The notes under the pieces: model-generated
What the model was told of the DNA's origin: nothing
Databases searched by the model: none
The model's input: only the letters and a program-made list of their open reading frames with translations
Part shown: piece by piece, positions 1,397-59,809 of the stretch
Position numbering within the stretch: the stretch's first letter is position 1
How the letters are laid out: every line of letters begins with the position of its first letter
Translations under genes and position numbers: made by a program
Assembly: GCA_943359455.1 (NCBI GenBank)
Contig: CALRHL010000002.1
Coordinates: 7,665-71,664 of the forward strand
Source of the DNA: Candidatus Uhrbacteria bacterium RIFOXYB12_FULL_58_10
GTDB lineage: Bacteria; Patescibacteriota; Patescibacteriia; UBA9934; GWF2-40-263
Reading direction: 5' to 3'
Length of the DNA: 64,000 bases

Positions 1397-2188
1397 ATGA
1401 AAGATACGAGTAAGATTTATCGTCTTTATATTGATGAATCTGGAAATCATAGTTACGGGTGTACGGATTCCATCCAAGGCAGATACTTGGCACTATGTGG
1501 AATCATGTTCTCGCAGTTTCAGAATGAGAATTATATCGCCCCTAAATTTGAAGAGATGAGATCGATCTTTACCGAAGATGTCGATGATCGCCCCACCTTC
1601 CACTACACCGATCTGATCAATAAAAATGGTCATTTCGCTAAACTGAACGATGCGAGTGTAAAAGCGTCATTTAATGGTATCTACATTAACTTTTTAGAGA
1701 GTTCCGAATTTACTATTTGTTGCATTGTAATAGACAAGAAAGCCCACAAAGAGAGGTACGGGCAACCGATGCATCCTTATCATTATTGCCTGAATCTTCT
1801 TCTTGAACGCTATGTTCAATTTCTGAGACGTATCGACAGTAAGGGTGACGTTATGGCCGAAGGTAGAGGAGGAAAAGAAGATCAACTATTAAAATCTGAG
1901 TTTCAGAATTTCTTTAACAACGGAACTTCCTATCTTGATAGCGACAAAATCCAACTGAGGCTATCCTCAAAAGAGATGAAGATTAAAACAAAAGAGGCTC
2001 GTATTGCTGGCCTTGAATTAGCTGATCTGCTGGCTACTCCATTGAAATTTTTAACCTTATATCAAAATAAGGTTATAGATAAACTCGATGATAACTTTTC
2101 AAGGCAGGTACTCAAACTAGTTTGGCCGAAGATACGATCAGCCCCATCTGGGAAGAAAAACGGTTACGGGTTGAAGCTGATTAAATAG
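1397..2188 (+). CDS. DUF3800 domain protein
   Basis: N-terminal IYRLYIDESGN motif is typical of DUF3800. Start lies 3 nt after the upstream stop (taATTatg), so the pair is probably an operon. Confidence 0.7.
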   Translation: MKDTSKIYRLYIDESGNHSYGCTDSIQGRYLALCGIMFSQFQNENYIAPKFEEMRSIFTEDVDDRPTFHYTDLINKNGHFAKLNDASVKASFNGIYINFLESSEFTICCIVIDKKAHKERYGQPMHPYHYCLNLLLERYVQFLRRIDSKGDVMAEGRGGKEDQLLKSEFQNFFNNGTSYLDSDKIQLRLSSKEMKIKTKEARIAGLELADLLATPLKFLTLYQNKVIDKLDDNFSRQVLKLVWPKIRSAPSGKKNGYGLKLIK

Positions 2189-2214
2189 AAAAGCCAGCTT
2201 GCGCTGGTTTTCTA
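2189..2214 (+). terminator. Rho-independent terminator after the DUF3800 gene
   Basis: AGCCAGC-TTGC-GCTGGTT hairpin followed by TTTCT. Confidence 0.55.
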
Positions 2215-2336
2215 CGATGCTATTTCAGACATCCACCTCCGATAAACGGATTAAATACATAATACAGGGATATACATCTTCTGCGTAGGGATAACTCATT
2301 TTAAGCTTTATTAGCAGGGTAACAACAGTTTTTTTC

Positions 2337-2365
2337 TTGACCAAAATCTATTTCTCAGCTATAGT
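2337..2365 (+). promoter_or_regulatory. Sigma70-like promoter (TTGACC, 17-nt spacer, TATAGT)
   Basis: Near-consensus -35 and -10 with ideal spacing, about 200 nt upstream of the HD-domain gene. Confidence 0.55.
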
Positions 2366-2372
2366 GTAAGAG

Positions 2373-2566
2373 TAAAAGTGAAGAGGATAGTTCGTCCCAT
2401 AGACGAACCTCGTACCGCTCCCACTCGTGGGTAGGCAATCAGGGAAGTCTGCTGAGAGCCACATGCGTTACCGAGACTGATCACGAAAGTGGTTGGGAGA
2501 TTTCATCCAGTTTTTCTGGATCAATCTCTCGGCCACTTTTCGTTTATTCATCATTATTTACACTAT
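2373..2566 (+). ncRNA. Structured ~195-nt 5' leader; candidate riboswitch (weak THI-box/TPP-like motifs) with a terminator-like expression platform
   Basis: Hairpins GTTCGTC/GACGAAC and CCCACTCGTGGG. Ordered motifs GCTGAGAG (2451-2458), ACC, CTGATC, CAC-GAAA-GTG, GGGAG. A 19-bp imperfect stem at 2484-2542 (CGAAAGTGGTTGGGAGATT / AATCTCTCGGCCACTTTTCG) is followed by TTTATTC. Confidence 0.3.
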
Positions 2567-3136
2567 ATGACACTGGGAGAAGCATACGAACAATTCGAAA
2601 GATTGAACCCTATCGCTGAGGCGTTAGTAAAAGAGAGGATCAGAGGCACACGAAAAGGCTTACCAGACGAGCAGAACTACTCGCACTCCCTTCGAGTGCA
2701 GCGGCTCGTCATGGACTGTCATCATTGGGATGATCCCGATCATGACGTTTTTCTCGCCGCTCTCTTGCATGATGTGATTGAGGACGGGGGCGTAACGTTC
2801 GAGGAATTGCAGGCCATGGGCTTTACCAGCCGTACAATCGACCTCGTGAGGCTCTGTACGCACCCTCTTGCCGTCGAGAACTCTACGGAGCGTTGGACGC
2901 TCATGATGGCTAAACTCGTTGAGGCGAGGGACGACGACGCTTGGCGGATCAAACTCGCTGACCTTACGGATAACCTTAGGCAGTCGGTAGGATTAACGCC
3001 TGAAAATCGAAAGTTTATGGTTGAAGTAAAAGCACCACTGATGTTGCGTCTTACCGAGCGGTATATCTTCATCGAGGAAGCGTGGCGTGTGTTATGGAGG
3101 GAGATGGAGAAACAGCGCAAAGAGATGGCGATCTAA
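2567..3136 (+). CDS. HD-domain phosphohydrolase (RelA/SpoT-like HD fold)
   Basis: HSLRVQRLV...AALLHDVIEDGG matches the H..H...HD..ED metal-binding pattern of HD hydrolases. The listed ORF starts at 2489; the internal Met at 2567 is preferred because it lies downstream of the structured leader. Confidence 0.7.
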   Translation: MTLGEAYEQFERLNPIAEALVKERIRGTRKGLPDEQNYSHSLRVQRLVMDCHHWDDPDHDVFLAALLHDVIEDGGVTFEELQAMGFTSRTIDLVRLCTHPLAVENSTERWTLMMAKLVEARDDDAWRIKLADLTDNLRQSVGLTPENRKFMVEVKAPLMLRLTERYIFIEEAWRVLWREMEKQRKEMAI

Positions 3137-3236
3137 TCTCCCAGTAGCTATGCTGAGCAAAGCTCAGTCATTCCACTAAACTGGAACTCTTGCTCAAAGG
3201 CACGCCAGTTCACGGTTCGGAACGCGTCCAATAGAG

Positions 3237-3265
3237 GGAGCCATGCACCGTCTGGTGCATGGCGG
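3237..3265. repeat. Hairpin repeat A copy 1 (GGAGCCATGCACC-GTCT-GGTGCATGGCGG)
   Basis: Near-identical copy at 8468-8496. Confidence 0.8.
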
Positions 3266-3314
3266 AGCCATCGAGTGGTGGTTTCGCTGTGCTTAGACAT
3301 TAAGGTGAACTAGG

Positions 3315-3350
3315 AAAACCGTCTTGGTAAATCTAGACGGTTTTCTTTTT
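3315..3350. terminator. Bidirectional Rho-independent terminator
   Basis: AAAACCGTCT-loop-AGACGGTTTTCTTTTT. Confidence 0.6.
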
Positions 3351-3366
3351 GGTATAATTACGTCGT

Positions 3367-3627
3367 ATGTTTTACGTTTATATACTCTTATGTGCGGACA
3401 AAAAGTTTTATGTTGGGTTTACAGAAGATTTAAGGAATAGAATTGATCTTCATAAGAATGGACATGTAGCTTCCACGCGACCACGTCGACCAATTAATCT
3501 TATTTTTTATGAAGCATATCTGGATAAGTATGATGCATTACGAAGAGAAATCTATTTGAAAACGAGTAAAGGAAAAACGACATTGCGGTCTATGCTACGA
3601 GAATACTTATCAAAATATCTGGTGTGA
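3367..3627 (+). CDS. Small GIY-YIG nuclease superfamily protein (86 aa)
   Basis: FYVYILLC...FYVGFTEDLRNRIDLH...STRPRRP is the GIY-YIG core. TATAAT lies about 10 nt upstream of the ATG. Confidence 0.75.
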   Translation: MFYVYILLCADKKFYVGFTEDLRNRIDLHKNGHVASTRPRRPINLIFYEAYLDKYDALRREIYLKTSKGKTTLRSMLREYLSKYLV

Positions 3628-3677
3628 ATTGAGAAATATAAATCTTCACATCATCATAACCGGACCCCATAACCGTG

Positions 3678-3713
3678 CTGGATAATTCCGTTATCCGGAC
3701 CTGACCCCGACTG
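3678..3713 (-). repeat. Dispersed 35-nt hairpin repeat B, copy 1
   Basis: CTGGATAATTCCGTTATCCGGACCTGACCCCGACTG. Identical copy at 8570-8605, inverted variants at 13212-13267, diverged copy at 60510-60535. Internal stem GGATAA/TTATCC. Confidence 0.8.
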
Positions 3714-3962
3714 GACATTTTTCTTCATCGGAAAAAAAGATTTTCCGCAACGCCATGAATATAATTGAGGGAAAAATCTGACAAAGCGATTCTCCGCGAA
3801 AGCGGAGATATTATCAATGCATTATTTCTCATTGTATTTTCTGCAGGCATGGTTGCCTCGGCGGTATACGCCTTTAACAGAAAAGGTTAATCCACACATG
3901 CTTGACTTCTTTATTATTTTGCCATATACTGAGAATCTCTAATGATTTGATCATCTAACTTT

Positions 3963-4394
3963 ATGCCGAATACCAATATCGAACAACTTATTTCATTGAT
4001 TATTACCACCACTCGTCTTATTCGGGAACACACTAAACATCGAGAAAAAATTGATCCCCTTTCCTATCTTCAATTGGGAACGCTTCGTTATGTGGCTGAA
4101 AAAAACAACCCACCCATGAAAGATGTTGCCGACCACCTCTGCATTACCCCTCCTTCCGCAACTTCTCTCATCAACAATTTGACAAAAATGAAGCAGCTTG
4201 AACGCATCTATGATAAAGATGACCGCAGACTTATCAGGCTTGCTATTACTGCCAAAGGCAGGAAAACGCTTGAGGATGGGTTTAAGAAAATAACAATACG
4301 AATGCAAAGAGTGTTAAGCAAGCTCAGCGAAAAAGAAAGAAGCGATTTTATTAAAATCCTGGAAAAACTCTCCCGCGCGTATAGTAATAAATAA
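3963..4394 (+). CDS. MarR family transcriptional regulator
   Basis: 143 aa with a winged-HTH MarR-like pattern (LSYLQLGTLRYVAEK...DDRRLIRLAITAKG), immediately upstream of the efflux operon. Confidence 0.75.
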   Translation: MPNTNIEQLISLIITTTRLIREHTKHREKIDPLSYLQLGTLRYVAEKNNPPMKDVADHLCITPPSATSLINNLTKMKQLERIYDKDDRRLIRLAITAKGRKTLEDGFKKITIRMQRVLSKLSEKERSDFIKILEKLSRAYSNK

Positions 4395-4399
4395 TTTTA

Positions 4400-6151
4400 A
4401 TGAAGATTATGATCCAAGTTCCAAAAAGACCAATTATTATTGTGTTACTCGTCATTGTTCTTGGAGGAGTTATTGGTAGTTACATCTATTTCGGCGGGGA
4501 CAGCGCTCTGGCATATGATTTTATTGTCGCTGAAAAACGTGACCTCGTTCAGGACGTAAGTGTCACGGGACGCGTTAAGCCGGCAGAGAGCGTTGATCTT
4601 GCATTTGAGAAAAGCGGAAAAGTTGCACTGGTCACTGCGAATATCAGTGATAAGGTGAGGCCTGGCCAAATACTTGTCACTCTTGAAAATTCAGAACTCT
4701 TGGCGGAACTCTCCCAGGCAGAAGCCGGAGTGGAGAGTGCTGAAGCCCAACTTAAGCAATATCAAGCATCTGTTGAAACGGAGCAGGCAAGCCTTGCCGA
4801 ACTGGAGCAAGGTACAAGGCCTGAAGAAATACAAATTGCAGAAACAAAAGTTTCAAATGCGCAAAATTCAGTTGAAGATGCGGAACTGAACCTCAATAAT
4901 GTACAAAGTAAAGCTAGTAACGATTTAGTAAATGTCTATGGAGACACCATGGATATATTAAATGATGCATATACCAAAGCAGATAATGCCTTGCATGCTC
5001 AAATTGACGAGATGTTTAATAATGATGATGGTAGTAGTCCTAAATTGACCTTCATAGTAACTAATTCCCAAGCTGAGATTGATGTAGAATTGCAGCGGTT
5101 CATTGCAGGAAATGAACTGGAGGATTTTAAGGTGGAACTAGACACTTTTTCAACTTCTGACTTCCCATCACTTGACCAAGCACTTGTAAATGCAGAAGGT
5201 CATTTAGTTATTATTAGGGATTTTCTTAATCGTCTTGGTGACGCAATAAATAGTTCTGCTGGGATATCTTCAAGCACGGTCAGTATATACAAAAGCAACT
5301 TGAATGTAGCGCGTGTCAATGTCAATACAGTTATCTCCAATAGTAACAACCAAGAACAAATTATTGCTACACAAAAGGAAATCAACCAGAGTAGTGTCAC
5401 TACTGCTGAAGCTCAAGTTAACGATGCTCAATATGCTCTCTTGTCCGCAGAAACAGAATTGACTCTCAAAAAAGCTGGTTCAACTCTCGAGCAAATTACT
5501 GCCCAAAAAGCACAGGTTGAACAAGCCGAAGCCAATGTCACCTCTCAGGAAGCTCAAATAAAGCAAACGAAAGCAAATGTCCAAAACATCGAAGCGCGAC
5601 TTTCAAAAACAATCGTTTACTCACCAATCAATGGAATCATTACAACACAAGACGCTAAAGTTGGTGAGATAGTTTCTGCCAACACTATTATTGTTTCTCT
5701 AATTTCAGAAGCAAAATTTGAAATCGAAGCCAATGTGCCGGAAGCGGATATCGCAAAAGTAAGCGTGGGTAACACCTCGTTGGTTACGCTTGACGCCTAC
5801 GGCAGAGATGTTGTTTTTGAAGCGAAAGTGGTTGCTATTGATCCAGCGGAAACCATTGTGGACGGCGTTGCAACCTACAAAGTGACATTTCAATTTACCA
5901 AAGAGGATGAGCGCGTTAAGTCAGGAATGACCGCGAATATCGATATCGCAAGCGACCGCAGGGTAAATGTTATTGCTGTGCCACAGCGATCCATCATCAG
6001 GAAAAACGGAGATAAATTCGTAAGAATATTAAACAGTGAAGATTTTGAAGAGGTAAAAGTAGAAACAGGGCTCCGCGGTTCTGATGGAAATATTGAGATT
6101 ATAAAAGGAGTCAATGATGGTGACAAAGTAATAACTTTCAGCGAAGAATAG
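4400..6151 (+). CDS. HlyD/MacA-family efflux periplasmic adaptor subunit
   Basis: N-terminal TM segment, long coiled-coil (repeated AELSQAEAGVESAEAQL-type heptads), C-terminal beta-barrel region. Confidence 0.8.
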   Translation: MKIMIQVPKRPIIIVLLVIVLGGVIGSYIYFGGDSALAYDFIVAEKRDLVQDVSVTGRVKPAESVDLAFEKSGKVALVTANISDKVRPGQILVTLENSELLAELSQAEAGVESAEAQLKQYQASVETEQASLAELEQGTRPEEIQIAETKVSNAQNSVEDAELNLNNVQSKASNDLVNVYGDTMDILNDAYTKADNALHAQIDEMFNNDDGSSPKLTFIVTNSQAEIDVELQRFIAGNELEDFKVELDTFSTSDFPSLDQALVNAEGHLVIIRDFLNRLGDAINSSAGISSSTVSIYKSNLNVARVNVNTVISNSNNQEQIIATQKEINQSSVTTAEAQVNDAQYALLSAETELTLKKAGSTLEQITAQKAQVEQAEANVTSQEAQIKQTKANVQNIEARLSKTIVYSPINGIITTQDAKVGEIVSANTIIVSLISEAKFEIEANVPEADIAKVSVGNTSLVTLDAYGRDVVFEAKVVAIDPAETIVDGVATYKVTFQFTKEDERVKSGMTANIDIASDRRVNVIAVPQRSIIRKNGDKFVRILNSEDFEEVKVETGLRGSDGNIEIIKGVNDGDKVITFSEE

Positions 6152-6152
6152 T

Positions 6153-6872
6153 ATGCCGCTCATCGATGTCAAAAACATAGGAAAAACCTATTACAACGAT
6201 CGTGTGGAAACACATGCTCTTCGTGATGTGTCTTTTGAAATTAACGAGGGAGAATTCGTTGCTATCATGGGGCCTTCGGGATCAGGCAAATCAACCTTGC
6301 TTCATATCTTGGGTTTCTTGGACAGACACACCAATGGAAAGTACCGCTTTGACGGCAAAACCATTGACGACTATTCAAAAGAAGAAATTGCCCATGTACG
6401 AAATAAAAAAATGGGGTTTGTTTTTCAATCATTCAATCTGCTTGCAAGAACGACCGTTCTTGAGAATGTAAAACTGCCGCTTCTCTATTCTGACGTTAAA
6501 AAATCTATGCGCGACGAGATCGCGCTCAAAGCCATTGAGTCAGTGGGGCTTTCTCATCGCATCAGTCACGAATCCTCTCAGTTGTCAGGTGGCGAAAAAC
6601 AGCGCGTAGCAATCGCCAGAGCGCTAGTGAATAAACCCAATGTAATATTTGCAGACGAGCCAACGGGCAACCTTGATTCTAAATCAGGAAAAATGGTAAT
6701 GGAGTTTATTCAAAAACTGAATGAAGAAGAAGGGCATACTATTATTCTAATTACCCACGAAACCTATACTGCTGAACACGCCCAGCGAATTATTAGAGTC
6801 CTCGACGGCAATATAGAAAGTGATACAAAGGTAAATCACCGCCACAGGGCTCGCGATCATTTTGAGAAATAA
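6153..6872 (+). CDS. ABC transporter ATP-binding protein (MacB-type)
   Basis: Walker [13 protein letters not shown] signature [15 protein letters not shown], Walker B IFADEPT. Confidence 0.9.
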
Positions 6873-6895
6873 CTACTGGTGAATGTATTCAAACT

Positions 6896-8134
6896 ATGAT
6901 ATTTAGCGACAGTTTTACAACAGCCCTCGGTGGGCTTCAAACAAACAAATCTCGATCCGCACTTACCATACTCGGCATTGTTATTGGCATTACCGCCATT
7001 ATTTTAGTGATGTCCGTCGGCCAAGGAGCTGAAGACCTTATTTTAAATCAAGTACGGGGTTTGGGTTCTCAAACAATTATTATTGAACCCGGCAGAGAGC
7101 CGACGGGCCCTTCGAGTTTTGCCGAGCTTTTTACCGATTCTCTAAAACCAAAAGATGTGGATGCGTTGCGGAAACCTTCCAATGTGCAGGGGTTAAAAGA
7201 ATTAACTCCAATGGTCATGCAAGTGGCCGCTGTCACTTTCGAAAATGAAACAGTCAGGACAAATGTCATCGGCGCCTCTGAGCTTATCGCTAAGATTCTT
7301 GATATTTTTCCGAACAAGGGATCATTTTTTACCGATGAAGATATTAGGCAAAAAGCGAATGTTGCGGTTATAGGATCAGAAATCAAGAGCAAACTCTTTG
7401 GCCCTTCCGAGGCCCTTGGAGAGAAAATAAAATTAAAGGGGCGAACCTTTCGCATTGTCGGCATACTGCCCCCGAAAGGACAGGTTGCCCTCTTTAATGC
7501 TGACGATATGGTGGTGGTACCCTATACAACCGCCCAGCAGTACCTTTTTGGCATTAATCATTTTAATACCATTCTTGCTCAAGCTGAGACCGAAGACATG
7601 ATGCCCCGCGTAGTGCGGGACATTGAGCTCACTCTGCGTGAGACACACAACATTGACGACCCCGACAAAGATGATTTTCACGTAACCACGCAAGCCGACG
7701 CGGCCGAACGGGTTCAGACCATCACGGGAATACTAACTGTTTTGTTAGTTTCCGTTGCCGCGATTTCTCTTATTGTCGGCGGGATCGGCATTATGAACAT
7801 CATGTTGGTTTCGGTATCTGAACGAACGCGCGAAATAGGCCTGCGCAAAGCTCTGGGAGCGACAGAAAAAGACATCATGACGCAATTCCTTTTAGAAGCA
7901 GTGATGCTTACCGCGCTCGGCGGAGTTGTCGGAATAGCTCTCGGCGCCGCTTTTTCTTTTCTTGCCTCACTTATCCTTAGCAGAATTGTCGCTCTCGGTT
8001 GGGTATTTACCTTTCCTATCGCGGCCGCCCTTTTGGGGTTGGGAGTGGCGGCGTTCGTAGGGCTTGTGTTCGGCCTCTATCCCGCCCGCCAAGCCTCCCT
8101 TAAAAGCCCGATGGAAGCTCTGCGCTATGAGTAG
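6896..8134 (+). CDS. ABC transporter permease (MacB/FtsX-like) with periplasmic domain
   Basis: N-terminal TM, large periplasmic domain, C-terminal FtsX-like 3-TM bundle (RKALGAT motif). Confidence 0.85.
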   Translation: MIFSDSFTTALGGLQTNKSRSALTILGIVIGITAIILVMSVGQGAEDLILNQVRGLGSQTIIIEPGREPTGPSSFAELFTDSLKPKDVDALRKPSNVQGLKELTPMVMQVAAVTFENETVRTNVIGASELIAKILDIFPNKGSFFTDEDIRQKANVAVIGSEIKSKLFGPSEALGEKIKLKGRTFRIVGILPPKGQVALFNADDMVVVPYTTAQQYLFGINHFNTILAQAETEDMMPRVVRDIELTLRETHNIDDPDKDDFHVTTQADAAERVQTITGILTVLLVSVAAISLIVGGIGIMNIMLVSVSERTREIGLRKALGATEKDIMTQFLLEAVMLTALGGVVGIALGAAFSFLASLILSRIVALGWVFTFPIAAALLGLGVAAFVGLVFGLYPARQASLKSPMEALRYE

Positions 8135-55731: not shown

Positions 55732-55854
55732 CACAAACACTGTAAAATTGTGAGGTGTTGGTGCGCAGCGAGCAGCGCAGTAAGGCGTACAAAGATGTAC
55801 GTCGTCGAGCAGCACAGCTGCAAACCAACAGATCGCAATTTTACAGTGTTTGTG
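55732..55854. repeat. Perfect 19-bp inverted repeat (CACAAACACTGTAAAATTG / CAATTTTACAGTGTTTGTG) enclosing ~85 nt, abutting the tRNA-Thr 5' end
   Basis: 19/19 complementarity. Inner GCGCAGCGAGCAGCGCAG-type repeats. Confidence 0.75.
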
Positions 55855-55929
55855 CCGTCATAGCTCAGTTGGTAGAGCGCATCCATGGTAAGGATGAGGT
55901 CATCGGTTCAATCCCGATTGACGGCTCCA
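55854..55929 (+). tRNA. tRNA-Thr (anticodon GGU), CCA encoded
   Basis: Manual fold: acceptor GCCGTCA/TGACGGC, D-arm GCTC...GAGC, anticodon stem CATCC/GGATG with loop ATGGTAA, T-arm ATCGG-TTCAATC-CCGAT. Confidence 0.85.
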
Positions 55930-55975
55930 AAAAGAACTCTCGCGAGAGGGTTCTTTTTATTTGTAAAGGTGATGC

Positions 55976-56479
55976 TCATATCTGTTCCTTCCACGATTCG
56001 TACGTTCCATTTTTTTTGAGGTTGTAGAAAACAAAACTTGCAACTGTGTTACCCCAACCTTCGCTTCCCTCGTTGTAGACCACCCCGTCATATCCTTGCT
56101 GCATCATAAAATCTGAGAACATGTATGCCCATGTCGGGGATGTAATGTTCGGACTCTTGAGTTTTACGCTACCCATCGTTCCGAGAAGAACACGTAAATC
56201 GATTGCAGATTCTTTCAGCGCTCTCTCGAGAAACGATACATAATCAATTTCTTGTGCATCAAATATTGCAGCGATATTGCCTTCACGTGGTTTTTTCTCA
56301 CGAAAATATTTCATGAAGGCAGTACGCCACGCCTCGGCAAGTTCATGCGGAAGGGGCGCATTAAACCCTTTTGCGTCTTTCCATCGGAGGTCTACTTCCG
56401 TGGAACAGCACATCGGGAGACCGTTCAAATTCCTCTCGCGACAATGTGCGAGGATCGCGCTCGCCGAGCATTCGTTCAC
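55976..56479 (-). CDS. Hypothetical protein
   Basis: The C-terminal ~110 aa look protein-like. Start uncertain (listed GTG start). An upstream ATG at 56534 is in another frame. Confidence 0.4.
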   Translation of the reverse strand: MNECSASAILAHCRERNLNGLPMCCSTEVDLRWKDAKGFNAPLPHELAEAWRTAFMKYFREKKPREGNIAAIFDAQEIDYVSFLERALKESAIDLRVLLGTMGSVKLKSPNITSPTWAYMFSDFMMQQGYDGVVYNEGSEGWGNTVASFVFYNLKKNGTYESWKEQI

Positions 56480-57083
56480 CGACAGCTTCGCGTGCCTCCA
56501 GTGGGATTACCTCATCCGTTTCGATTGATTTCATAGGTTTTTCTTGTGTTACATGTTTTCTCTGGCAATAAACCGTTTTATGTTGTTTTCAACAAGGCAA
56601 GAAATTAATCCATCGTTAATTTAACGAAGAAACTTTTCGTATGGATATTTATAAGAAAAGTTTAGCATCTAACTTAAAATATATAAAACCATTCTCAAAT
56701 TTCGGTGCTGTTAGTTATTGTGATGAAGAAGAAACAATGGTTTGATGTATCGTGCAGTATAGAAGAAAGGATTTTACAACTTTTCTATGCTCAACTTAGC
56801 CAATATTTAAGATAGTTTCTAAATTGATTGTGAGAAATCAGGTTATTTCATGAATCGAGACACATCGCAATCGGTAATCAGTTTTGTACTCTAACTTCAA
56901 TATATCAGCGCATTAGTACGACTTATTAAAAGTTATCGGCCAAACTTTGAATAAGCGAATCCATCAGAAAAGTTTTCTCACATTCTTCCCAAGCACACAG
57001 CGGCGTCGATGGAGAAAAACCCTCTGATATCAGATGATTTAGCTCATCGGGTGCGCTCTTGCTTTTGTAATGGACAAATCCCC

Positions 57084-57112
57084 TCTAAAAAAACACTCCG
57101 TATGGAGTGTTT
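57084..57112. terminator. Rho-independent terminator overlapping the stop of the minus-strand gene (AAACACTCC-GTAT-GGAGTGTTT)
   Basis: Same stem sequence as the terminator at 22961-22990. Confidence 0.65.
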
Positions 57113-57647
57113 AGATGCCGAGCTGTTCGAAGCCTTCTTCTTCGAGCTGCATGATTTCATCTGAGGTGAATGGACGCATGGAGCTTGGGGGTTGCCAGTT
57201 TCGCTCCGTGGCAACGGTTACAAGCATGTAGGCCGCGAGTGCATCAAATGCGGTCATGCGCGATTCGTTTTCGAATCGACGACAGGTGTGGTACAGTGCC
57301 GTCTTGATGACCAAGTAACGCTTGATCAACGCGTCAGGATTTTTCGACTTCAAGAGGAAATCCTGGAGTGGAGTGGCGACTGCCATGAATCCGTCGATCG
57401 CAATGAGCCAGCCCGCGACGAGCAATGCGACGTCTTCGTAGTTTTTTACGTTTGCTGATCCAATCGAACCGATTGAGATAGCAATGACCTGCGTGCGTTC
57501 TTCGGGCGGCAAAGACATCGTTTCCATGATCGATTCAGGAGTCATGGGACATGCAGGATTGAGCGTTGAGTACATCTTTTCTCCATGAGTCGTGTCACGA
57601 AATGTGACAAAGAAGCATAGCAGATAAAAGAGTATCTGTCTAGACAT
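57111..57647 (-). CDS. Hypothetical protein
   Basis: 178-aa ORF; probable start at MYSTLNP (57575). Hydrophobic segments present; no family recognised. Confidence 0.5.
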   Translation of the reverse strand: MSRQILFYLLCFFVTFRDTTHGEKMYSTLNPACPMTPESIMETMSLPPEERTQVIAISIGSIGSANVKNYEDVALLVAGWLIAIDGFMAVATPLQDFLLKSKNPDALIKRYLVIKTALYHTCRRFENESRMTAFDALAAYMLVTVATERNWQPPSSMRPFTSDEIMQLEEEGFEQLGI

Positions 57648-57685
57648 TCAAATGTAGATCATTTATAATCGCGTTTGCAAGCCAT

Positions 57686-57771
57686 GGGCAGATACTCAAG
57701 CGGTCAACGAGGAGAGACTGTAAATCTCTTGGCTCACGCCTTCGAAGGTTCGAATCCTTCTCTGCCCACCA
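57686..57771 (+). tRNA. tRNA-Tyr (anticodon GUA), class II long variable arm, CCA encoded
   Basis: Acceptor GGGCAGA/TCTGCCC, anticodon stem AGAGA/TCTCT with loop CTGTAAA, variable stem-loop GGC-TCAC-GCC, T-arm GAAGG-TTCGAAT-CCTTC. TTTATAAT -10 just upstream. Confidence 0.85.
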
Positions 57772-57779
57772 TCCCACTT

Positions 57780-58005
57780 CGCTCTTCGAGCTACGTTAGG
57801 GATGTATCCCACAGAACAGGCGAAGTGGGATGCCCCTAACGAAGCTTGAGCAAAGCGAAGTGGGGCTCTGTTTCTATCCTTCGCTCTTCGAGCTACGTTA
57901 GGGATGTATCCCACAGAACAGGCGAAGTGGGATGCCCCTAACGAAGCTTGAGCAAAGCGAAGTGGGGCTCTGTTCCTATCCTTCGCTCCTCAATCACCAG
58001 AAAAA
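57780..58005. repeat. 102-bp tandem repeat, about 2.2 copies, between tRNA-Tyr and tRNA-Thr
   Basis: Unit CGCTCTTCGAGCTACGTTAGGGATGTATCCCACAGAACAGGCGAAGTGGGATGCCCCTAACGAAGCTTGAGCAAAGCGAAGTGGGGCTCTGTTTCTATCCTT. Copies at 57780-57881 and 57882-57983 differ by 1 nt. Internal hairpins ATCCCAC/GTGGGAT and CGTTAGGG/CCCTAACG. Confidence 0.85.
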
Positions 58006-58008
58006 CCC

Positions 58009-58083
58009 GCCGCTTTAGCTCAGTGGTAGAGCAACACTTTTGTAAAGTGAAGGTCCCCGGTTCGAGCCCGGGAAGCGGCTCCA
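58009..58083 (+). tRNA. tRNA-Thr (anticodon UGU), CCA encoded
   Basis: Acceptor GCCGCTT/AAGCGGC, D-arm GCTC-AGTGGTA-GAGC, anticodon loop TTTGTAA, T-arm CCCGG-TTCGAGC-CCGGG. One A.A mismatch at 27:43. Confidence 0.8.
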
Positions 58084-58142
58084 TTCGACTCCTTGACCAA
58101 TCTAGGCTGATTTGATACTGTTCTGGCATTGAAAAAACTATT

Positions 58143-58298
58143 ATGTCTCAAGATAACATCATTAAACTCGAATGCTCAACCTGTAAGAATGTTGGGTATA
58201 TGAGTCACAAGAATAAAAAGATGCTGAAGGAGCGTCTGGAGCTTAAGAAGTTTTGCAAGTGGTGTAAAACGCATATTCCTCACAAGGAAACGAAGTAA
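58143..58298 (+). CDS. rpmG: 50S ribosomal protein L33
   Basis: 51 aa MSQDNIIKLECSTCKNVGYMSHKNKKMLKERLELKKFCKWCKTHIPHKETK with the L33 zinc-ribbon pattern. Below the ORF-track size cutoff. Confidence 0.85.
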   Translation: MSQDNIIKLECSTCKNVGYMSHKNKKMLKERLELKKFCKWCKTHIPHKETK

Positions 58299-58322
58299 AA
58301 CCGCCTTTTGGCGGATTTTGCT
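58297..58322. terminator. Rho-independent bidirectional terminator (AAAACCGCC-TTTT-GGCGGATTTTG)
   Basis: Perfect 9-bp stem and T-tract. Serves rpmG and the convergent minus-strand gene. Confidence 0.7.
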
Positions 58323-58369
58323 TAAAAAAAGACCACGTGGCAACGCGACGTGGCAAGGAAGGGCGTGCG

Positions 58370-58921
58370 CTACCTCGAGTGGTACGCGATGGCGGTCTTG
58401 AGGTCTTCGAGATTGTGGGAGGGACCGCGGTTCGGTTTCGTCAGGCTATCGATCGACTTCCAGACGATCTTTCCGTTGACGATGAGGAGCAGACCGTTGC
58501 GGATGCGGTTTTGTTCTTCCTTCGGGATGTGAACATCGAGAAGGATTGCGAACTCGTGGCTCGGGATGAGTACCTGTTTTGCTCCACTGATACATTTGGC
58601 GTAGTGGATGTAGCTTCGGTACGCGTTGCCGTAGGTCGTTGGTTCGCCTGCGAGTATGTGAACCGTAACTGTTTCATTCGCGAATCTTTCCATGAGCGCC
58701 TGCATGGCGACACGGAAGTCGACGAGATCCTTGAACGTGGCGATGACCACGATTCCGTCACCCGAAGCGAGCTCGCTCGCATGTTTTCCATTCTCGACCG
58801 TTCCGGCGTGCCGGAATGTTGCCTCGGAAGGGAAGTTGATGAGCTCGTTGCTCGGGCCAGAAGTATCGATGCGGAGAGAATCCTCACCTTGATCGGCGAG
58901 GGGAGGGAGAGCGGTAGACAC
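58370..58921 (-). CDS. Hypothetical protein (183 aa), weak thioredoxin/peroxiredoxin-fold resemblance, locally high GC
   Basis: Coherent minus-strand frame. The overlapping 250-aa plus-strand ORF is R/D/V-rich antisense. Pattern GKHASELASGDGIVVIATFKD...FAILLDVH...LLLIVNGKIVW loosely resembles redoxin topology but has no CxxC. Confidence 0.45.
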   Translation of the reverse strand: MSTALPPLADQGEDSLRIDTSGPSNELINFPSEATFRHAGTVENGKHASELASGDGIVVIATFKDLVDFRVAMQALMERFANETVTVHILAGEPTTYGNAYRSYIHYAKCISGAKQVLIPSHEFAILLDVHIPKEEQNRIRNGLLLIVNGKIVWKSIDSLTKPNRGPSHNLEDLKTAIAYHSR

Positions 58922-59073
58922 GTGCGTGACCTCATGACCGTTGTTTCAGAACGTGCTTCGAGCGGATCCCGAAAACACGAGGCGGAGTGTACCCTGCTTC
59001 TTGCGATGGGTCAAGATCGGTTTAAGCTGGCATGTTGGAACTACATAGGTTATGTGGTATACTTTGGTTTGAT

Positions 59074-59748
59074 ATGGCACATCTCTTAAAAAAGAAAACA
59101 GATGCGATCTTATTGAGAAAGAAAGGAGCGTCAGTTCCTGCGATCGCTCAATCGTTAGGAATTGCGAAAAGTACGACGTGGTTATGGGTAAAACATGTAG
59201 TTCTTTCAGAGAGACAAGTGGCGGATCTTGTAAAAAATTCTGTTGATGGTCGCAATACTGGAAAGCAGGTGCTTGCGGCAGTTCGTTTAGCACACCAAGT
59301 TGTAAGACAAAAAAATGCAAAAACGATAGTTTCAGATCTATTAACAGTGCAACCAGATTCGTTTTGGAAAGTTTTCGCAGCAATCTTATTCTGGTGTGAA
59401 GGAGGTAAGCGACATTTAACATCAGTAAGATTTACGAATTCAGATCCGGAACTCCTCCGTGTATTTTTATATGCTTTTCGTAAAGGTTTCGACCTTGATG
59501 AAAGGAAATTTCGTGCGGTTGTACACATTCATGGATACCATGATGATTTAAAACAAAAGAAATTTTGGTCAGAAGTAACAGGGGTTTCAATGAAACAGTT
59601 TTCAAAATCATACGTAAAACCGAATACAGGGAAACGGGTACGTCAAAACTATCAAGGGTGTCTATCGCTTCGATATAATGATGCAGCCCTTGCTCGGATG
59701 CTAGACGCCTTGTATCATGCATTCGCAGCACAGATAGGGGCTTGGTGA
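59074..59748 (+). CDS. HTH-domain protein with possible LAGLIDADG-like segment
   Basis: N-terminal LRKKGASVPAIAQSLGIAKSTTWLWVK HTH. AAILFWCEGGKRH...VRFTNSDPELLRVFLYAF loosely resembles a LAGLIDADG motif and following helix. The 3' end overlaps the tRNA-Trp 5' end by 13 nt. The listed ORF starts at 59032. Confidence 0.45.
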   Translation: MAHLLKKKTDAILLRKKGASVPAIAQSLGIAKSTTWLWVKHVVLSERQVADLVKNSVDGRNTGKQVLAAVRLAHQVVRQKNAKTIVSDLLTVQPDSFWKVFAAILFWCEGGKRHLTSVRFTNSDPELLRVFLYAFRKGFDLDERKFRAVVHIHGYHDDLKQKKFWSEVTGVSMKQFSKSYVKPNTGKRVRQNYQGCLSLRYNDAALARMLDALYHAFAAQIGAW

Positions 59749-59809
59749 AATGGTATCACGACTCTCTCCAAAAGAGTTGTCGCAGGTTCGATCCCTGCAG
59801 CCCCTGCCA
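59736..59809 (+). tRNA. tRNA-Trp (anticodon CCA), CCA encoded
   Basis: Acceptor AGGGGCT/AGCCCCT, D-arm GTGA-AATGGTA-TCAC, anticodon stem ACTCT/AGAGT with loop CTCCAAA, T-arm GCAGG-TTCGATC-CCTGC, discriminator G. Confidence 0.85.

Follow-up and report, generated by a model that had tools for sequence, protein, structure and literature searches.

A structured leader RNA that precedes an HD-domain hydrolase gene in Candidatus Uhrbacteria bacterium RIFOXYB12_FULL_58_10 is one copy of a large, previously uncatalogued family of probably cis-regulatory RNAs. The leader was analyzed within a 64,000-nt stretch of contig CALRHL010000002.1 (hereafter the window, whose positions are used throughout). It is about 175 nt long and is placed between a sigma-70-type promoter and an intrinsic terminator, all three being covered by 2337–2548, and the gene behind it encodes a protein resembling the hydrolases of RelA/SpoT homologs (RSH). 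An earlier reading of the sequence alone (the sequence-only reading) had proposed a candidate riboswitch here, with words reminiscent of the thiamin pyrophosphate (TPP) riboswitch, or THI box. The structured, conserved leader and its terminator were borne out by the present analysis and the TPP resemblance was not; "candidate riboswitch" is nevertheless a fair label because a structured leader with a terminator-type platform is conserved upstream of orthologs of the HD gene.

Structure and conservation of the leader family

The leader and its surroundings contain the following elements, all on the plus strand.

2337–2365, plus strand: sigma-70-type promoter, TTGACC (2337–2342), 17 nt, TATAGT (2360–2365), matching at 10 of 12 positions
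2390–2408, plus strand: P0, 5' hairpin GUUCGUC-CCAUA-GACGAAC with arms 2390–2396 and 2402–2408; its sequence differs among copies
2409–2475, plus strand: three-way junction of P1, P2 and P3, an aptamer-like core
2409–2418 with 2465–2475, plus strand: P1, about 10 bp, with covariation
2420–2423 with 2428–2431, plus strand: P2, hairpin CCCA..TGGG, with covariation
2434–2442 with 2452–2460, plus strand: P3, hairpin with an internal loop, closing the conserved loop
2442–2451, plus strand: P3 loop word GGGAAGUCUG (family consensus GGGAAAUCUG)
2477–2496, plus strand: putative antiterminator hairpin CUGAUCAC-GAAA-GUGGUUGG, 2477–2484 with 2489–2496, mutually exclusive with the terminator base
2491–2505, plus strand: switching strand GGUUGGGAGAUUUCA, the best-conserved word in the family and the 5' half of the terminator
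2483–2548, plus strand: intrinsic terminator, with core 2489–2502/2523–2536, apical stem 2505–2510/2516–2521 and U-run UUUUCGUUUAUU (2537–2548)
2567–3136, plus strand: putatively regulated gene, encoding a 189-aa HD_4 / RelA-SpoT-hydrolase-like protein (small alarmone hydrolase-like)

Loci were first gathered from genomes and a protein collection through the HD protein alone. The leader was present upstream of nine of the 12 HD orthologs so retrieved, down to 48% amino-acid identity (loci L001–L005, L007, L131, L250 and L251); the three loci that lack it (L129, L130 and L252) all have the HD gene inside an operon. The words GGGAARUCUG and (G/A)GUUGGGAGAUUUCA were unchanged in eight of these nine copies. 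Metagenome copies were gathered with a DNA pattern that was made from these two words and fixes both. The pattern matched at least 120 metagenome contigs, and the family counts given below (100, 107, 112 and 122 copies; 102 and 129 loci) are counts among the matches listed. The named relative is a Candidatus Uhrbacteria metagenome-assembled genome (Parcubacteria group, Patescibacteria), and the metagenome contigs carry no taxonomic or habitat assignment. A covariance model built from the relatives (R1) found exactly one copy in the window, at 2386–2545 (133 bits, E = 5e-27), and one copy per related locus; it found no additional copies in the window or at related loci, minus-strand matches corresponding only to the palindromic hairpin.

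The leader folded with a z-score of -5.2, and 0 of 200 shuffles folded equally well. Stems that had been picked out by eye, GTTCGTC/GACGAAC (2390–2396/2402–2408), CCCA..TGGG (2420–2431) and CAC-GAAA-GTG (2482–2491), were all recovered. Along the family consensus the order is P0, P1, P2, P3 with loop GGGAAAUCUG, a short J3/1 and the 3' strand of P1, followed by "GA", CURRYY(NN), an A-rich loop, (NN)GGUUGG-GAGAUUUCA, a variable apex, AAAUCUC-YYRRCC(NN) and the U-run. An RNAalifold consensus of 65 simple copies comprised 39 pairs, 24 of them with compensatory changes. In a larger alignment, in which 100 copies were aligned to the model (mean pairwise identity 66%), 96% of cells formed the pair versus 82% in column shuffles, and homologous leaders provided the covariation that the sequence-only reading had called for: changes on both sides occurred in 28 of the 39 pairs (540 compensatory cells), and 0 of 500 shuffles reached the observed values. 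When the partners were slid by 1–3 columns as a control, pairing fell to 36–49%. In this alignment helices 1–4 were 91–99% paired, with both-side changes in 18 of their 20 pairs, and helices 5–6, which form the terminator, were 93–99% paired, with compensatory changes at the GC/AC/GU base. P0 lies outside the scored consensus structure and has compensatory variants in relatives (e.g., GUUUGUG/CACAAAC in L001). The 5' leader therefore contains a conserved, covarying aptamer-like domain, as is generally expected of a transcriptional riboswitch.

The promoter, TTGACC-17-TATAGT, was the top promoter-like site within 1800–3800; it precedes the ATG at 2567 by 230 nt, in agreement with the sequence-only reading. 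A promoter with two or fewer mismatches of 12 was found at the equivalent spot, defined as a -10 box 133–146 nt upstream of the GGUUGGG word, in 47% of 112 family copies versus 2.5% of shuffles.

The family is absent from the catalogs searched. Scanning the whole window with cmscan at gathering thresholds returned four tRNAs only, and a permissive Rfam 15 scan of 2150–2750 at E ≤ 10 returned noise (e.g., microRNA precursor models on the hairpin). There was likewise no Rfam match at the motif in 14 related loci or in the best-scoring family member. No BLAST match was obtained in phage or plasmid collections, IMG/VR contained one true copy only (on one viral contig), and no motif copy was found at 80 phage loci encoding HD_4 relatives, which served as a negative control; a phage or plasmid origin was rejected on these grounds. 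The motif is also undescribed in the full-text literature searched, whose coverage excludes subscription journals. Because there is no Rfam 15 match, no phage or plasmid record and no description in this literature, we treat the leader as a new RNA family, a terminator/antiterminator leader and riboswitch candidate.

The terminator and a candidate competing upstream pairing

A long imperfect hairpin followed by a U-run had been read as a terminator-type expression platform. Such a hairpin is present at 2483–2542, with TTTTCGTTTATT at 2537–2548, and a terminator stem with at least five U in the next nine nucleotides, the arrangement of an intrinsic terminator, was found in 114 of 122 unique copies. 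The switching strand in its 5' half is unchanged in the protein-retrieved copies except for AGUUGGG in L007 and GGUUGGGAGAUUCCG in L131. Its 3' partner strand, AAUCUCUCGGCCAC (2523–2536), varies among copies, always keeping Watson-Crick or wobble (G-U) pairs with the switching strand.

The same switching strand can also pair upstream. An antiterminator hairpin of 6–11 bp was found in 105 of 107 unique copies, the remaining two having 4 and 5 bp. Its 5' strand is always CURRYY, and the CURRYY/GGUUGG pairing was compatible in 99.8% of cells, with one-sided wobble changes and only one double change; at its four variable positions it shows only purine/purine or pyrimidine/pyrimidine choices that preserve pairing with GGUUGG. 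The dinucleotide before GGUUGG (GC, GU or AC) pairs with the terminator 3' strand in all 107 copies, with 15 double changes, and pairs with the upstream strand too in 68 of the 107, few double changes being seen in this 2-bp extension. For a transcript ending at 2506 the minimum-free-energy fold contained the antiterminator (2477–2484/2489–2496), and for the full transcript it contained the terminator.

A further upstream contact may involve the P3 loop, in which GAAGUCU (2444–2450) is complementary to AGAUUUC (2498–2504) of the switching strand and could form a pseudoknot or second antiterminator contact; the family loop, GAAAUCU, is exactly complementary to AGAUUUC. This candidate pairing was 99.7% compatible, with zero double changes. 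Neither strand varies, and the search pattern itself fixes both in the metagenome set, so that covariation between them has no value as proof. The sole divergent copy, L131, is mixed in this respect, a U-to-C change being matched by A-to-G and two other positions being broken. Read in 5'-to-3' order, the P3 loop and CURRYY together mimic the 3' strand of the terminator, which suggests a bipartite antiterminator or pseudoknot.

A switching mechanism can be proposed from these elements. The constitutive-looking promoter at 2337–2365 would start an RNA near 2372 that folds into P0 and the three-way junction P1-P2-P3, and the strand GGUUGGGAGAUUUCA would then have two competing sets of partners. 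With the upstream option, CUGAUCAC (2477–2484) would form the antiterminator, possibly joined by the P3 loop in a pseudoknot; with the downstream option, AAUCUCUCGGCCAC would form the long hairpin that, together with the U-run, ends transcription before the HD gene. A bound effector would stabilize the upstream pairing and allow polymerase to read through into the operon, giving an ON switch. The effector-bound fold is expected to hold the terminator 5' strand in this way, through antiterminator and pseudoknot, because the best-conserved nucleotides include that strand. A cis-acting conditional terminator is, in our judgment, distinctly likely and, granted a switch, ON polarity is fairly likely.

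The proposed layout parallels that of the ZTP/pfl, fluoride, guanidine-I and PRPP/ppGpp ykkC subtype 2 ON switches, which likewise have a promoter-owning leader, a covarying multi-stem aptamer-like domain, a most conserved strand that doubles as the terminator 5' half, a mutually exclusive upstream pairing, which is putative in the present leader, and genes that plausibly remove the ligand. In the ZTP, fluoride and guanidine-I switches the effector-bound fold contains the terminator 5' strand and the logic is ON. The present leader differs from these switches in that it matches none of them in sequence or structure, its antiterminator is a separate small hairpin after P1, its cargo is unusually diverse and its ligand is a proposed one.

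Two further features of the terminator region vary within the family. The terminator apex occurs in discrete versions with inserted sub-hairpins (e.g., AAGAGAUAGCAAUAUCUUU and CUUAAGAGGUAUAAGUCUUAAG; L009, L010, L019 and L037), and in L111 it is cut down to a minimal hairpin with UUUCAC as the loop; because there are several discrete versions, one of them minimal, the apex appears to be modular and dispensable. A semi-conserved (G)GUCG box follows the U-run by 5–13 nt in 47% of copies (e.g., L003 2891–2900 and L005 3021–3027), and nGUCGr is also found in 39% of P4 apical loops. The GUCG box is complementary to the conserved CGAC of an ..ACGACUAAYC.. segment, and the window copy lacks both boxes.

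Downstream genes and the candidate effector

The motif was always co-directional with and directly upstream of an open reading frame (ORF), with about 20–130 nt between U-run and start codon. In the window, 2567–3136 is the next ORF after the leader and is conserved from its ATG. Its product scored 25.1 bits against Pfam HD_4 (1.7e-5; below the 27.2-bit gathering cut-off), 22.7 bits against Pfam HD (1.3e-4; just above the 22-bit cut-off) and 8e-10 against NCBIfam spoT_relA, and its PHROGs match was to a generic "metal-dependent phosphohydrolase" only. The nearest solved structures were Mesh1 (3nqw), Rel/SpoT hydrolase domains and a (p)ppApp hydrolase. Residues R29, K30, H40, H68, D69, E72, D73, R109, D132 and N136 were 94–100% conserved among 70 motif-linked homologs, and the same residues without R109 were 97–100% conserved. 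We take these residues, on the basis of the Rel(Seq) structure, to be the full catalytic set of 3'-pyrophosphohydrolases. The protein thus combines an HD_4 fold with the set R-K...H...HD...ED...D..N, as is characteristic of RSH hydrolases, and most of the motif-linked operons are predicted to encode catalytically intact RelA/SpoT-type 3'-pyrophosphohydrolases. Mesh1-type relatives are reported to be able to act on NADPH as well (PMC9765508).

A coding explanation for the conserved segment, in which an ORF beginning at GTG-2489 continues in frame into the HD gene, was rejected: the nucleotides are invariant while the flanking stems covary, and the spacing to the ATG varies. Gene callers extend many HD homologs (among P0004–P0072) into the leader, listing them at 200–290 aa for a true length of about 190 aa; these overlong entries are probably the same annotation artifact, arising via the in-frame GTG at 2489.

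Among the 102 loci with at least 900 nt downstream, an HD_4-like protein was encoded by the first gene in 42 and by the second gene, behind a small uncharacterized ORF, in 27–28, about 70 operons in total; none was found in the available sequence of 32. Pfam HD_4 itself was detected in 46 of 116 first genes. The 32 loci lacking HD_4 included four with a His_Phos_1 phosphatase, one with a HAD phosphatase and one with an Exo_endo_phos protein. His_Phos_1 and HD_4 appear to be linked independently of the RNA because they share an operon at L129 (1180–2995; His_Phos_1, an uncharacterized gene and, third, HD_4) from which the leader is absent.

The genes behind the leader also encode small proteins (60–260 aa) from more than 30 unrelated families, none of them matched in Pfam, PHROG or PADLOC, and these genes often come before the HD gene. 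Examples of such first genes are L061 2719–3474, L070 655–1179, L116 1524–2195 and L089 5973–6668, and in nine loci a later position in the operon is occupied by a further family, with an FSFIPHRLEI...NNFPFN motif.

The same RNA repeatedly precedes phosphohydrolases of three unrelated superfamilies, and the signal may therefore be the phosphorylated compound that these enzymes remove. RSH-type hydrolases dominate the motif operons, so an effector of this kind would most plausibly be (p)ppGpp, pGpp, (p)ppApp or similar. On balance we favor, with moderate confidence, a new switch that acts in cis through alternative terminator and antiterminator folds; it is probably a riboswitch of the ON type, whose ligand would be a phosphorylated nucleotide, for example (p)ppGpp or (p)ppApp. 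We put the chance of a small-molecule riboswitch at about even, and an alarmone-type ligand is a tentative proposal that we hold to be rather doubtful. The analogy with the ppGpp riboswitch (ykkC subtype 2a, RF00442 lineage) would lie in alarmone sensing and control of termination; the two differ in that the folds are unrelated, the ykkC-yxkD model RF00442 has no match at E ≤ 10, and the ligand of the present leader is one suggested by its genes. Known ppGpp riboswitches are associated with amino-acid biosynthesis and transport genes in Firmicutes and are not known to control alarmone hydrolases.

Several observations weigh against this reading. The 8-bp antiterminator has much lower stability than the terminator hairpin, and the evidence for antiterminator and pseudoknot consists of pairing compatibility with an invariant partner strand and almost no double changes. 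About 30% of the operons have no phosphohydrolase in the available sequence, and the first genes encode many unrelated small proteins without known domains, a diversity unusual for a metabolite riboswitch. The RNA is flanked by a strong promoter and a very stable terminator, which would also suit a free-standing transcript. Finally, the surroundings of the motif loci are variable and abound in restriction-modification genes, DUF2726, RhuM and recombinases, a setting that would also fit a role in defense or in mobile elements.

Genomic setting and alternative explanations

Two genes precede the leader in the window.

81–1394, same strand as the motif: DUF2779 gene (Cas4-like plus exonuclease), in an operon with the DUF3800 gene
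1397–2188, same strand: DUF3800 gene; a small terminator-like hairpin at 2194–2207 closes the DUF2779-DUF3800 operon

Because the DUF3800 gene has its own terminator-like hairpin, the promoter at 2337–2365 is considered to open a separate transcription unit. Of the 81 loci with enough sequence, 18 have a DUF2779-like gene as the immediate same-strand neighbor on the upstream side of the motif, which looks like synteny rather than a functional requirement. Further neighbors of the motif include methylases and Abi_C, AAA_13, SduA_C and SocA/Panacea genes. PADLOC gave no match for the HD protein, the DUF2779 and DUF3800 proteins, the downstream GIY-YIG protein or three motif-linked homologs, and membership in a defense system was rejected on this basis. 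Given the restriction-modification-rich neighborhoods and the many uncharacterized small cargo proteins, a defense- or stress-related role may still apply.

The attenuator could instead respond to a macromolecule, with an RNA-binding protein, tRNA or other RNA reading the invariant loops in the manner of T-box, PyrR, TRAP, ANTAR or LoaP-like systems. The long, absolutely conserved stretches GGGAAAUCUG and GGUUGGGAGAUUUCA suit recognition by protein or RNA as well as they suit a ligand pocket. The cargo behind the motif is highly varied, and the GUCG boxes after the U-run and in many apical loops could provide a second binding site. RSH-type hydrolases, moreover, include enzymes that repair pyrophosphorylated tRNA 3' ends. 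Nevertheless, no conserved gene for a candidate RNA-binding protein is linked to the motif, whose neighbors are DUF2779, methylases and the like; no T-box, ANTAR or other Rfam cis-regulatory model matches it; and a three-way junction with short conserved junctions looks aptamer-like. A macromolecular effector is accordingly judged rather unlikely.

A stand-alone, trans-acting small RNA (sRNA) of about 175 nt, either working with the HD_4 and island genes or merely syntenic with them, would leave the downstream genes to be expressed independently. A plain sRNA would have no use for the near-universal alternative hairpin, which takes apart the base of the terminator, and the 20 nt that separate the U-run from the ATG in the window show no evident second promoter. 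Besides the flanking promoter and terminator and the variable, island-like context, what speaks for an sRNA is that the window copy lies directly 3' of the DUF3800 gene, several mutually unrelated, terminator-ended RNA motifs of unknown function having been reported in linkage with DUF3800 genes (Weinberg et al., 2017; PMC5737381). The leader resembles those motifs in its high sequence conservation, its complex fold ending in an intrinsic terminator and its largely metagenomic occurrence. They are, however, rarely found in 5' untranslated regions (UTRs) and occur in either orientation (PMC5737381), whereas the present RNA is consistently a 5' UTR, always directly upstream of and co-directional with its gene, and linked to HD_4. 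DUF3800-like genes were found near the motif at only three of 129 loci in a local iterative hidden Markov model search, and a DUF3800 linkage was rejected on this count. Nor was any Rfam 15 match at E ≤ 10 obtained to DUF3800-I to DUF3800-XI, drum, skipping-rope or FuFi-1, a result that presumes, as we believe to be the case, that the DUF3800-type motifs are included in Rfam 15. An independent sRNA is thus improbable.

The RNA could also be the antitoxin or gatekeeper of a toxin-antitoxin or abortive-infection module, similar to type III toxin-antitoxin systems, in which the HD hydrolase or the small proteins would be toxic. The layout of ToxIN-type loci resembles the order of promoter, structured RNA, terminator and effector gene seen here, and the setting is island-like, with restriction-modification, Abi_C, AAA_13, DUF2726, SduA_C and SocA/Panacea neighbors. 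The present RNA differs in having no tandem (direct) repeats and variable protein partners, and the HD hydrolase lies outside the endoribonuclease toxin families. One conserved RNA stands before dozens of unrelated proteins and could not neutralize all of them by binding; together with the negative PADLOC result and the near absence of the motif from viral contigs, this makes an antitoxin very unlikely.

A divergent TPP riboswitch, to which the three-way-junction-like leader followed by a terminator and the words GCTGAGAG (CUGAGAG), ACC, CUGAUC and GGGAG in the order seen in TPP aptamers had pointed, can be dismissed almost with certainty: the words are all present, but RF00059 has no match at E ≤ 10 in the window or relatives; CUGAGAG makes up the 3' side of P3, where it covaries with the opposite strand and is replaced by CGGAAAG in most copies, and CUGAUC is the CURRYY strand of the antiterminator, so that the likeness of a few short words is one of chance; conserved unpaired CUGAGA and ACCUGAUCUGGAUAAUGCCAGCG-type TPP sensor elements are absent; and no thiamin genes were found downstream of the motif, the genes there being HD_4, His_Phos_1, HAD and uncharacterized small proteins. 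Every other Rfam family was rejected likewise, there being no match at gathering thresholds or at E ≤ 10.

Other features were noted in the window and at related loci. Very stable folding was also seen in the 216-nt spacer from the HD stop codon to the following gene (3137–3352), with a z-score of -5.75 that 0 of 200 shuffles equaled; the spacer holds a hairpin of 10 uninterrupted base pairs, GCCAUGCACC/GGUGCAUGGC, and, around 3314–3349, a terminator. L001 and L003 partly share, at the corresponding position, its block CGGUUCG..AC..CCUCGA..GGAGCCAUGCA, which may represent an element of the 3' UTR or what is left of a tRNA/att site. The gene for an 86-aa GIY-YIG protein (3367–3627) has an extended -10 promoter of its own, TGGTATAAT (3350–3358), immediately behind the HD terminator. 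Within 3963–8134, a MarR-family regulator (3963–4394; Pfam) is followed by three genes that were assigned by eye only as a periplasmic adaptor, an ABC ATPase and an FtsX-like permease (MacAB-type efflux), and the four tRNA genes lie on the plus strand inside 4 kb (55854–59806). LOOT RNAs (RF03000) occur a few kilobases from the motif in two loci, L099 (7502–7629, 84 bits) and L109 (2235–2360, 61 bits).

Even if the effector proves to be a protein or tRNA, the family offers a clean example, rich in covariation, of a terminator/antiterminator switch for which Rfam 15 has no entry. Should it be a riboswitch, it would be a widespread new class, with at least 120 copies, from the Candidate Phyla Radiation (CPR)/Patescibacteria, where hardly any regulatory RNA is known, and its gene set points to a signaling nucleotide and not to a building-block metabolite. 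The most specific proposal, which we regard as unlikely though worth stating, is that it is the first of a new riboswitch class, largely of Patescibacteria/CPR, that directly senses an alarmone-type phosphorylated nucleotide, be it (p)ppGpp, pGpp, (p)ppApp or a novel signal, and switches on RelA/SpoT-type hydrolases, other phosphatases and uncharacterized small proteins. Were this true, it would constitute an RNA-based circuit for alarmone detoxification or reset in organisms whose regulation is almost unknown. The unannotated small proteins behind the motif would gain a functional context, and the aptamer could serve as a biosensor. Identifying the ligand could show whether such minimal cells have a stringent-type response and how it operates, or how they deal with toxins that produce alarmones.

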